From IMG/VR virus record IMGVR_UViG_3300029702_000330: 34,527 bases of DNA, one strand, 5' to 3'. The number at the start of each line of letters is the position of its first letter. Positions within the stretch are counted from its first letter, which is position 1. The notes beneath the pieces are model-generated. The model made no database searches, was not told the origin of the DNA, and saw only the letters and a program-made list of their open reading frames with translations. This document shows, piece by piece, positions 9,011 to 10,825 of this stretch. Source of the stretch: a virus (lineage: Duplodnaviria > Heunggongvirae > Uroviricota > Caudoviricetes). The translations under genes and the position numbers were made by a program.

Positions 9011-10825
9011 ATGGCTCAGGACAGCAACATAATGGCAACGTTACAACAAGAACTAATAGTTCGTGGCGAACAAGTTGAGCGAGTGTTTATCAACTATCAG
9101 GATAAAAAATACGTTGTGAATCGACAGTATCAACGTAAATTGATTTGGACTATTGAGGAAAAACAAAATTTTATTGACTCGATAATCAAGGGATTCCCGA
9201 TACCTATCATTTTGTTAGCAGAACCTCTTGGGAGAAAAGACGGCACTCTCGAGATTATTGATGGGATGCAGCGTATGAATGCCATCATGTCTTTTATCTC
9301 GAACGATTTTTCATTTAATGGATTCTACTTTGATTTAAATACGTTCGCGACGACGAAAGACCTATTAGATCGCGGAGTCATTGATCAGAAGATGCCACTC
9401 CTTGATCGAAGCCAGTGTCTTGCAATAGCATCATATCCTGTCCCGCTTTCAATTTATGAAGCAGCCGAGAGAGACTCAGTTGAGGAAGTGTTCAGGCGAA
9501 TTAACTCAGGTGGACGTCAGCTCTCACGACAGGAGTTGCGTGCAGCAGGTGCAACAAATGTGTTTGCGGAATGTGTTCGGAAGATCTCCGCAAGAGTTCG
9601 TGGTGACACATCTAACGCGGATCTCTTGCTCTTAAGCGAGATGAAAAAAATTAGCATCACGAACAAGGATTTAGACTACGGCATTAGTGCCGATAGCGTC
9701 TTCTGGATTGTTAACGGAATATTGACGAAGGAGCAGTTAAGACAGAGCCGGGATGAAGAGATAGTGGCGGACATTCTTGCTTATATGGTTTCTGACAAAC
9801 CTCTGGCCTCGCGTACAGAGCTTCTAGATGACTACTATGGAGCAATATCCCCGGAAGCTTTAGCCAGCAAAGCAAGATTCGAAGCGATTGATCAAGCTAT
9901 TAAAAAGAGAACCGGGGAGCTAGTCGATCTTGATTATCAAAGAGTACATGATGCGATAATCCTACTTCTTAGTCAGGCTCAAACGACATTCTCTGGTTTG
10001 ATTTTTCCTAACGGAAATGGTGGTAATCCAGTCCCCCGTTACTTTCAGGTGGTCTTTCTCGCCATGCATGACCTGATAATTAAAAGGGGTATGGTGGTTT
10101 CAGATAGTGCGGGCCTCATTGGGCGGCTGAAAGATTGCGGTAGGAATATTCAGGTTCAAGATGGAGGGAGATGGGGGGCTGACAACCGGAGTAGAATGGT
10201 CGATTCAATAATTGGTTGGATTCAGGGCTTTTTTGAAAACGATCAAAATCCAGATCCTGCAAAAGTTCATTGGATCACGAAGCTCCAAAATTTACTCACT
10301 AACTCAATAACTGAGCAGGCGGCCTACGATTTTAAACAAGGTTTCTATACTTTAGACCCATCACCTTCCTTTGATGAACGCTCCTTCGAAAAAATTATGG
10401 AGACCTGCGCTGCTATTGCTAATATCGGCAGAGGACACAAGGGCTATGTTCTTGTAGGGGTTGCTGAAAATGCGCATACTGCAACAAGAGTTCAGGAGAT
10501 TTTCGGAAGCAAGGCTTTATCTTATAACGGCTTCCATATAACTGGTGTTGATCACGAAGCGAACCACGCTGGAAAGAACCTTGACCAGATGTTCCAAGAC
10601 ATCTCTGATCGGGTAGGACGCTCAGGACTTTCAGAACCGCTTAAGTCCTACATAAACACTCATCTTAAATGCGTTCGATACTTCGATAAGACGGTTTTCG
10701 TCTTCGAAATTTTAGGTCAGGATACCCCTTCACATATAGCTGGTAAGTGGGTTGAGCGGCAAGGAGCCCAGGTCAGAGATATCGCTCCTGAAGGAATGGT
10801 TGCACTGTTTGAGCGTTTCAGATAG
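9011..10825 (+). CDS. DUF262 (ParB-like nuclease superfamily, GmrSD-type N-terminal domain) protein with a C-terminal region resembling an AlbA_2/Schlafen-type nucleic-acid-binding domain; candidate anti-phage defence protein
   Basis: 604-aa ORF; N-terminus carries the DUF262 hallmark 'IIDGMQRMNAI' (DGQQR-type motif) after 'QRKLIWTIEEKQNFIDSIIKGFPIP'; C-terminal 'AAIANIGRGHKGYVLVGVAEN' resembles the AlbA_2 core; gene is visibly lower in GC than flanking phage genes and bounded by an AT-rich region and a terminator. Confidence 0.75.
   Translation: MAQDSNIMATLQQELIVRGEQVERVFINYQDKKYVVNRQYQRKLIWTIEEKQNFIDSIIKGFPIPIILLAEPLGRKDGTLEIIDGMQRMNAIMSFISNDFSFNGFYFDLNTFATTKDLLDRGVIDQKMPLLDRSQCLAIASYPVPLSIYEAAERDSVEEVFRRINSGGRQLSRQELRAAGATNVFAECVRKISARVRGDTSNADLLLLSEMKKISITNKDLDYGISADSVFWIVNGILTKEQLRQSRDEEIVADILAYMVSDKPLASRTELLDDYYGAISPEALASKARFEAIDQAIKKRTGELVDLDYQRVHDAIILLLSQAQTTFSGLIFPNGNGGNPVPRYFQVVFLAMHDLIIKRGMVVSDSAGLIGRLKDCGRNIQVQDGGRWGADNRSRMVDSIIGWIQGFFENDQNPDPAKVHWITKLQNLLTNSITEQAAYDFKQGFYTLDPSPSFDERSFEKIMETCAAIANIGRGHKGYVLVGVAENAHTATRVQEIFGSKALSYNGFHITGVDHEANHAGKNLDQMFQDISDRVGRSGLSEPLKSYINTHLKCVRYFDKTVFVFEILGQDTPSHIAGKWVERQGAQVRDIAPEGMVALFERFR

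Follow-up and report, generated by a model that had tools for sequence, protein, structure and literature searches.

The locus considered here raises a simple question: what is the function of a single open reading frame (ORF) that stands without partner genes between a DUF977 family gene and hokD in a prophage of Escherichia coli? The prophage is represented by the IMG/VR virus record IMGVR_UViG_3300029702_000330 (Caudoviricetes), a stretch of 34,527 nucleotides (nt) that we refer to as the window, and the gene in question is a coding sequence on the plus strand at 9032..10825, encoding 597 amino acids (aa) followed by a stop codon. We conclude that its product probably acts as a self-contained, prophage-borne defence protein, a prokaryotic Schlafen fused to DUF262 (pSlfn7-type), whose gene sits as a moron in the DUF977-hokD slot, and we hold the assignment of the gene to the DUF262-Schlafen class of defence genes with rather high confidence. 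The defence reading builds on the presence of both domains and their motifs, the lack of partner genes, the location in a hotspot, and the homology to a protective E. coli protein. The gene is a divergent member of a known defence class, not a new system.

Residue numbers are counted from the ATG at 9032 unless the 604-aa ORF is named, and conservation counts refer to the window protein together with 130 full-length representatives sharing 25-52% identity with it. The N-terminal part forms a DUF262 / GmrSD_N domain (9092..9601, plus strand; aa 21-190) with a ParB/sulfiredoxin-like fold, a putative sensor or regulator that would bind nucleoside triphosphate (NTP). A DUF262 signature of the 'DGQQR' type had been proposed from the letters alone (below, the sequence-only reading), and the hidden Markov model search bore it out: PF03235 (GmrSD_N) of Pfam matched aa 30-179 of the 604-aa ORF with E=2e-22 and 80.7 bits (cut-off 33.2), with no other Pfam match above noise in the window protein. 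Three motifs on the plus strand characterize the domain. Motif I, YQRKLIW (9128..9148), aligns to 'IQREFVW' of BrxU, and its Y33, Q34, R35, and W39 are each found in 131/131 sequences. Motif II, DGMQR (9260..9274), is a variant of DGQQR aligning to 'LDGQQR' of BrxU, where D77, Q80, and R81 are invariant (131/131), G78 is kept in 130 of the 131, and position 79 is either M or L. Motif III, FRRINSGGRQLS (9491..9526), aligns to FIRMNSGGTTLS of BrxU, with F154 and N158 in 131/131 and G161 in 130/131. The near-invariant positions of the domain are thus Y33-Q34-R35, W39, D77-G78-x-Q80-R81, F154, N158, and G161, and a family profile placed 'IIDGMQRMNAI' and the QR..W and FxRxNsgG..LS motifs onto BrxU 7p9k (E=4.5e-4). 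Comparison of the predicted model with known folds gave 8.8 for BrxU, 8.6 for SspE, 8.1 for the ParB-like PadC, and ~6.4 for sulfiredoxin, with similar values in two other fold searches; the domain has the ParB/Srx fold.

The C-terminal Schlafen / AlbA_2-type domain (10307..10822, plus strand; aa 426-597) is the putative nuclease effector. PF04326 (SLFN_AlbA_2) was matched by 28 of 36 full-length homologues (54-92% identical) over aa ~428-584, with a best E of 7.5e-7, and eight homologues scanned singly reached ~27-28 bits, above the gathering score of 25.3. The predicted structure of the C-terminus fits AlbA_2/Schlafen folds in the fold comparison, and the window protein has a Schlafen nuclease domain in the sense of a PF04326-type domain of more than 100 aa. 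Searches of the PDB by sequence, whether with the single protein, a C-terminal profile, or a profile of 104 sequences, returned no Schlafen, and of the three only the last reached BrxU, so that the Schlafen assignment rests on the Pfam matches of the homologues and on the fold comparison. Alignment conservation revealed a predicted catalytic motif of the form Ex4DxK, namely EQAAYDFK at 10313..10336 on the plus strand (E428 in 130/131, D/E433 in 129/131, K435 in 129/131), and E428-x4-D433-x-K435 fits the Ex4(E/D)xK that Perez Taboada et al. (Nat Microbiol 2026; PMC13056530) report as the catalytic site of Schlafen ribonucleases. Further downstream, GVAE (10457..10468, plus strand; G476 to E479) provides the second conserved acidic position of a Schlafen-type site, G476 being kept in 131/131 and D/E479 in 125/131. 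In view of the SLFN13 and SLFN11 structures, we take E479 to be a candidate equivalent of the third carboxylate of mammalian Schlafens. Altogether, E428, D/E433, K435, G476, D/E479, G505, E/D509, and R576 are near-invariant in this domain. Since Ex4(E/D)xK and the downstream acidic residue of GV-x-D/E are kept across the family, a catalytic nuclease of the Schlafen type is more probable here than a module that only binds nucleic acid. Of the earlier description as an AlbA_2/Schlafen-type nucleic-acid-binding C-terminus, the fold therefore stands, on the strength of the predicted structure and of the 28 homologues, whereas its restriction to binding is probably too narrow, given the conserved catalytic motif.

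Both domains are connected by a helical middle region (9602..10306, plus strand; aa 191-425), which is mostly helical in the AlphaFold2 model and for which the fold search of the model found no convincing match in the PDB. A first model had a mean confidence (predicted local distance difference test, pLDDT) of 79, while a second, built on 104 diverse sequences, reached a pLDDT of 92 and a predicted template modelling score of 0.90. The structure prediction and fold search suggested by the sequence-only reading thus returned a BrxU/SspE-like DUF262 N-terminus and an AlbA_2/Schlafen C-terminus. Median identity to the window protein is 47% in DUF262, 27% in the Schlafen domain, and 21% in aa 261-425, the second half of the middle region; this stretch varies more than any other part of the family and is a candidate specificity module. 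Within the same region lies a near-invariant linker motif, R-x-S-x-D-E-[EQ] (RQSRDEE, aa 237-243; 9740..9760, plus strand), outside the Pfam DUF262 model, with D241 in 131/131, E242 in 130/131, S239 in 128/131, and R237 in 122/131 sequences. The protein of E. coli UC4224, discussed next, has RDSMDEQ here.

The sequence-only reading could not match this domain combination to a named system, yet it has been published as one of 55 prokaryotic Schlafen architectures, DUF262-Slfn fusions included, by Perez Taboada et al. (Nat Microbiol 2026; preprint July 2025; PMC13056530). In that survey DUF262 fusions made up 1.8%, and seven Enterobacterales Schlafens were cloned with their native promoters (PMC13056530). 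One of them, the DUF262-Slfn protein EcoSlfn7 of E. coli UC4224, lowered the efficiency of plating of many phages when placed in MG1655, that of T7 by 538-fold, and the preprint of the same work names T3 and T7 for it (PMC13056530). Later papers deal with CRISPR-associated Schlafens, Argonaute-fused Schlafens, and an Enterococcus Schlafen. The complete genomes that carry the window allele, 16 in all, do not include UC4224. This strain does contain one gene at NZ_CP104472.1 4519514-4521283, a 100% match to a probe from a divergent IMG/VR relative, whose 589-aa product WP_028985442.1 has both DUF262 (1.2e-20) and SLFN_AlbA_2 (4.4e-7, above the Pfam threshold); as the UC4224 gene with DUF262 and PF04326, it presumably encodes EcoSlfn7. 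WP_028985442.1 aligns collinearly with the window protein over aa 7-585 at 32% identity (BLASTP E=2e-88), and its 'EVELANYELK' and 'GVADD' align to 'EQAAYDFK' and 'GVAEN' of the window protein. The earlier proposal of a single-gene anti-phage defence gains its support from this full-length, protective homologue.

If WP_028985442.1 is EcoSlfn7, the two proteins share a collinear three-part architecture of similar length (589 versus 597 aa), the DUF262 motifs, the RxSxDE linker, Ex4(E/D)xK, and GVA[DE], and each is encoded by a single gene in an E. coli prophage cargo hotspot. They differ in that they are only 32% identical, that the window protein falls below the Pfam threshold for Schlafen, and that the prophages are distinct: the UC4224 gene lies between a DinI-like gene and the portal gene of a P2-like prophage, in contrast to the Qin-like lambdoid prophage of the window with its DUF977/hokD position. 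Besides that of the window, E. coli harbours at least four divergent DUF262-Schlafen lineages, that of UC4224 among them, whose identity to the window protein is ~32-38%. Another, present in E. coli W, UMNK88, and a further 16 genomes, is 33% identical (best tblastn segment) and has a relative of 71% nucleotide identity in 9 genomes, while relatives with ~81% nucleotide identity to another viral-contig gene occur in 28 genomes (26 with the full gene, 2 with part of it).

Among the closest known systems are also the AlbA_2 domains of mammalian SLFN11/12/13/14 and SAMD9/9L, RorSlfn5, and the DUF262-DUF1524 proteins GmrSD, BrxU, and SspE, which are type IV or phosphorothioate-sensing. RorSlfn5 likewise defends as a single gene through a Schlafen effector with Ex4(E/D)xK, but its nuclease is N-terminal (E15, D20) and its Ig-like sensor C-terminal, whereas the window protein has an N-terminal DUF262 and a C-terminal nuclease. 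With GmrSD, BrxU, and SspE it shares an N-terminal DUF262 with NTP-binding motifs; it differs from them in that the C-terminal DUF1524 His-Me/HNH DNase is replaced by the Schlafen fold, DGQQR reads DG[M/L]QR, and the target is probably RNA rather than modified DNA. In GmrSD, BrxU, and SspE, DUF262 senses a phage cue or nucleotide state, responding to phage or modified DNA and to NTP.

How the protein might work can be sketched along these lines. In the resting state the nuclease would be held inactive. Upon infection, DUF262 and possibly also the variable helical region would bind a phage-derived cue, which by analogy with GmrSD, BrxU, and SspE could be NTP plus phage nucleic acid. Binding would release the Schlafen nuclease, a metal-dependent endoribonuclease, to cut RNA, probably in the tRNA anticodon arm as for RorSlfn5 and human SLFN11, and the ensuing stop of translation would lower the phage yield. 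For tRNA as the substrate, a proposal by analogy, we see about an even chance. The precedent is RorSlfn5, in which the T5 tail assembly chaperone triggers cleavage of the tRNA anticodon arm and for which alone a mechanism was worked out (PMC13056530).

The explanation that comes closest to rivalling an RNA-cleaving Schlafen defence protein is a DNA-targeting, restriction-like enzyme, that is, a GmrSD/BrxU-type IV enzyme whose DUF1524 HNH domain has been replaced. Either the Schlafen/AlbA_2 domain would cut or bind phage DNA, or DUF262 would be the nuclease and AlbA_2 the DNA-binding part. We regard this as unlikely. The defining DUF1524 is absent: neither the window protein nor a single one of 36 homologues matched PF07510 (DUF1524/HNH) of Pfam, in line with the sequence-only reading, which had seen no such C-terminus, and a GmrSD type IV enzyme proper was rejected on this ground. 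The conserved Ex4(E/D)xK is the motif tied to tRNA and RNA cleavage in Schlafens, and EcoSlfn7 acts most strongly against T3 and T7, phages whose DNA is not hypermodified. Finally, activation of RorSlfn5 proceeded without an SOS response (PMC13056530, Extended Data Fig. 5 legend).

Several points nevertheless weigh against a Schlafen-class defence protein that cleaves tRNA. Defence is deduced, by sequence, from a homologue only 32% identical to the window protein, and the tRNA substrate and the trigger are extrapolated from the architecture with an Ig-like sensor and from human SLFN11; for the DUF262-Schlafen fusion there is no published mechanism. Five of the seven cloned Schlafen constructs conferred no defence (PMC13056530). 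PF04326 did not match the window protein itself even at E<=1. The top structural neighbours of the C-terminal domain, the SAMD9 'DBD' and DIP2311, are deposited as DNA-binding or uncharacterised domains, which leaves room for DNA binding or cleavage. Lastly, a consensus scan found no sigma-70-like promoter on the plus strand upstream of the gene; the region had been called promoter-like, and it is AT-rich, but the scan gave that description no support.

The family to which the protein belongs is large. A profile search of 1.84 billion cluster representatives yielded 8335 proteins at E<=1e-3 and 367 at E<=1e-30 (50%-identity clusters), and nearly all of the best 150 matches are ~600 aa long and aligned end to end. 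Relatives occur in at least 563 species genomes from at least seven phyla, including Proteobacteria, Cyanobacteria, Bacteroidota, Firmicutes, Myxococcota, Acidobacteriota, and Chloroflexota, and ~48 IMG/VR viral contigs carry full-length relatives. Between the E. coli protein and those of Pseudomonas, Paracoccus, and Blastochloris, identity reaches 78-84%, which indicates recent horizontal transfer. Klebsiella variicola has a solitary homologue inserted beside smpB and Pseudomonas oryzihabitans one following guaA, and that of Blastochloris sits within an integrase/resolvase/Bro-N island. Within E. coli, the distribution is patchy, the window allele being present in 16 of 5426 complete genomes, always with at least 99.8% identity. 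The exact 597-aa protein was found in at least 1000 contigs, with 2299 blocks indexed in a large assembly collection, and its neighbours were identical in 10 of the 10 places inspected. Three of the 16 complete-genome copies are disrupted. In E. coli 13P477T the loss of 1 nt shifts the reading frame and separates DUF262 (392 aa) from the Schlafen part (209 aa), E371 shares its 1793-nt match and split annotation, and in E. coli 2017.09.02CC an ISVsa5 insertion truncates the 5' end. These disruptions may reflect a fitness cost.

Standard annotation has a blind spot for this lineage. RefSeq labels it 'DUF262' only, NCBIfam has no match, PHROG 26759 matches over the full length with no annotated function, and PADLOC v2.0.0 (2023) returned partial DUF262 matches only, namely NsnA (9.5e-28) and PD-T4-2_A (5.5e-18), both confined to aa 21-194. 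Menshen NsnA (NsnABC) and PD-T4-2_A (A+B) were therefore rejected despite being the best PADLOC matches, as they cover the DUF262 part alone and their partner genes are absent. PADLOC also had no match in nine neighbouring ORFs, which together with the DUF262-only matches argues against a multi-gene PADLOC system. Because the window protein goes unmatched by PF04326 though most of its close homologues pass the threshold, catalogues that require this family may miss the lineage.

The genomic slot adds to the picture. On the left it is flanked by a DUF977 family gene of the prophage early operon (8195..8596, plus strand; named after RefSeq annotation of near-identical loci) and on the right by the hokD/sok type I toxin-antitoxin module (11285..11609, plus strand), with the hokD coding sequence at 11454-11609, a translation that matches HokD, and sok recognized by Rfam (RF01794, 115 bits). 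Both flanks occur in most E. coli genomes, and the content between them is highly variable, just as the sequence-only reading had supposed in speaking of other cargo in related prophages. Elsewhere the slot holds HEPN, DUF7380, RelA/SpoT-domain, DUF5677, and SIR2 proteins, a Sll1717-type P-loop ATPase, QueH, an alpha/beta hydrolase, KilA-N, S-adenosylmethionine methyltransferases, and DUF7167. Defence-type domains abound in this cargo, and window 8597-11284 has the look of a defence hotspot of lambdoid prophages.

The same neighbourhood invites a second alternative, in which the gene would be a toxin-like addiction or inter-prophage competition element that stabilizes the prophage or excludes related temperate phages, instead of providing broad defence against lytic phages. 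It adjoins the hokD/sok killer module, the equivalent slot of E. coli K-12 holds relBE, and the three disrupted copies among 16 complete genomes would fit a cost to the carrier. Yet neither the ORF list nor PADLOC applied to the neighbours revealed an antitoxin-like partner gene, homologues also exist as solitary chromosomal genes outside prophages, and the homologous EcoSlfn7 protects against virulent T phages, so that we give this alternative a slim chance. A non-defence role, either as a prophage DNA- or RNA-binding regulator like many bacterial AlbA_2 proteins with a helix-turn-helix (HTH) or as an inactive remnant, is highly improbable, as the catalytic and NTP-binding motifs are kept across hundreds of species, an HTH domain is missing, the gene is patchily distributed and horizontally mobile, and the slot is otherwise filled with defence-type cargo.

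With regard to the gene itself, the program-made list contains the 604-aa ORF at 9011-10825 (plus strand) that the sequence-only reading had named. Its start is better placed at the second ATG (9032), which is used by all 36 aligned homologues and by the RefSeq annotation of near-identical loci, so that the 5' coordinate needs a correction of 21 nt (7 codons). The homologues have 597 aa and begin with MA..QQEL, and the RefSeq version of the gene measures 1794 nt. A Shine-Dalgarno-like AGGA at 9018..9021 (plus strand), read from the sequence, precedes this ATG by 10 nt. The gene stands alone, as had been claimed, and at 43.9% GC it is AT-richer than the window as a whole (48.1%). Upstream lies an AT-rich spacer of 435 nt (8597..9031, plus strand; 33.3% GC), which presumably holds the gene's own promoter; for EcoSlfn7, 100-150 nt of native upstream sequence were used (PMC13056530). 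Downstream, the proposed terminator was recovered by a terminator scan and inspection of the sequence as a terminator-like GC hairpin, GCCCGCATATGCGGGC followed by the T-rich TTATTTAC (10866..10891, plus strand), with its stem at 10866-10881 and then TTATTT.

Taken as a whole, the window represents a lambdoid E. coli prophage of the Qin type, which is integrated next to rspB/ynfA and arranged as an integrase (20-1315, minus strand), dicB/dicA/dicC-like early genes, and later tail genes. The closest match found for window 3032-16825 is the E. coli assembly GCA_012609535.1 (contig AASWLM010000001.1), with 99.957% identity and 6 mismatches in 13.8 kb, and among complete RefSeq E. coli genomes none matched the queried regions of window 8200-11650 at 100%. 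Besides the slot, the prophage carries a YdaT-family 'toxin' gene after the cro-like gene of the early operon (window 6687-7208), with no PADLOC match. Its late region encodes three CspA-family cold-shock paralogues at 14662-14874 (minus strand), 15175-15390 (plus), and 18061-18273 (plus), two of them within a low-GC (34-37%) stretch at ~15.0-20.0 kb. Window 17700-20700, between the lysis genes and terminase, is likewise of low GC (~34-37%) and contains short ORFs only, such as 19272-19697 (minus strand, 141 aa) and 18503-18775 (plus strand, 90 aa); it represents another variable moron region, in which relatives have insertion sequence elements, lipocalin/YbgA, or other genes.

What, then, does the finding mean for this family? 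The basic picture drawn by the 2026 paper (PMC13056530) is unchanged. With the window gene, a class that has one tested representative and no described mechanism gains a second E. coli lineage, strongly diverged from the first, and the gene exposes a family that is large, conserved end to end, and missed by standard annotation. The DUF977-hokD slot of Qin/Rac-type lambdoid prophages offers itself as a defence hotspot for mining. What remains of interest is how the DUF262 fusion works, along with the invariant RxSxDE linker, the variable middle region, and this hotspot, while lineages at 32% identity constitute a natural experiment on phage specificity. Quite speculatively, and with more doubt than confidence, these elements may be joined into one reading, in which the Schlafen domain would cleave tRNA in response to a DNA or nucleotide cue read by DUF262, aa 261-425 would set phage specificity, RxSxDE[EQ] would couple the domains, and the several diverged lineages of E. 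coli, with a separate prophage hotspot for each, would represent interchangeable specificities in phage-phage competition. If true, a protein leading from such a cue to tRNA cleavage would be a bacterial counterpart of human SLFN11, which is activated by single-stranded DNA.

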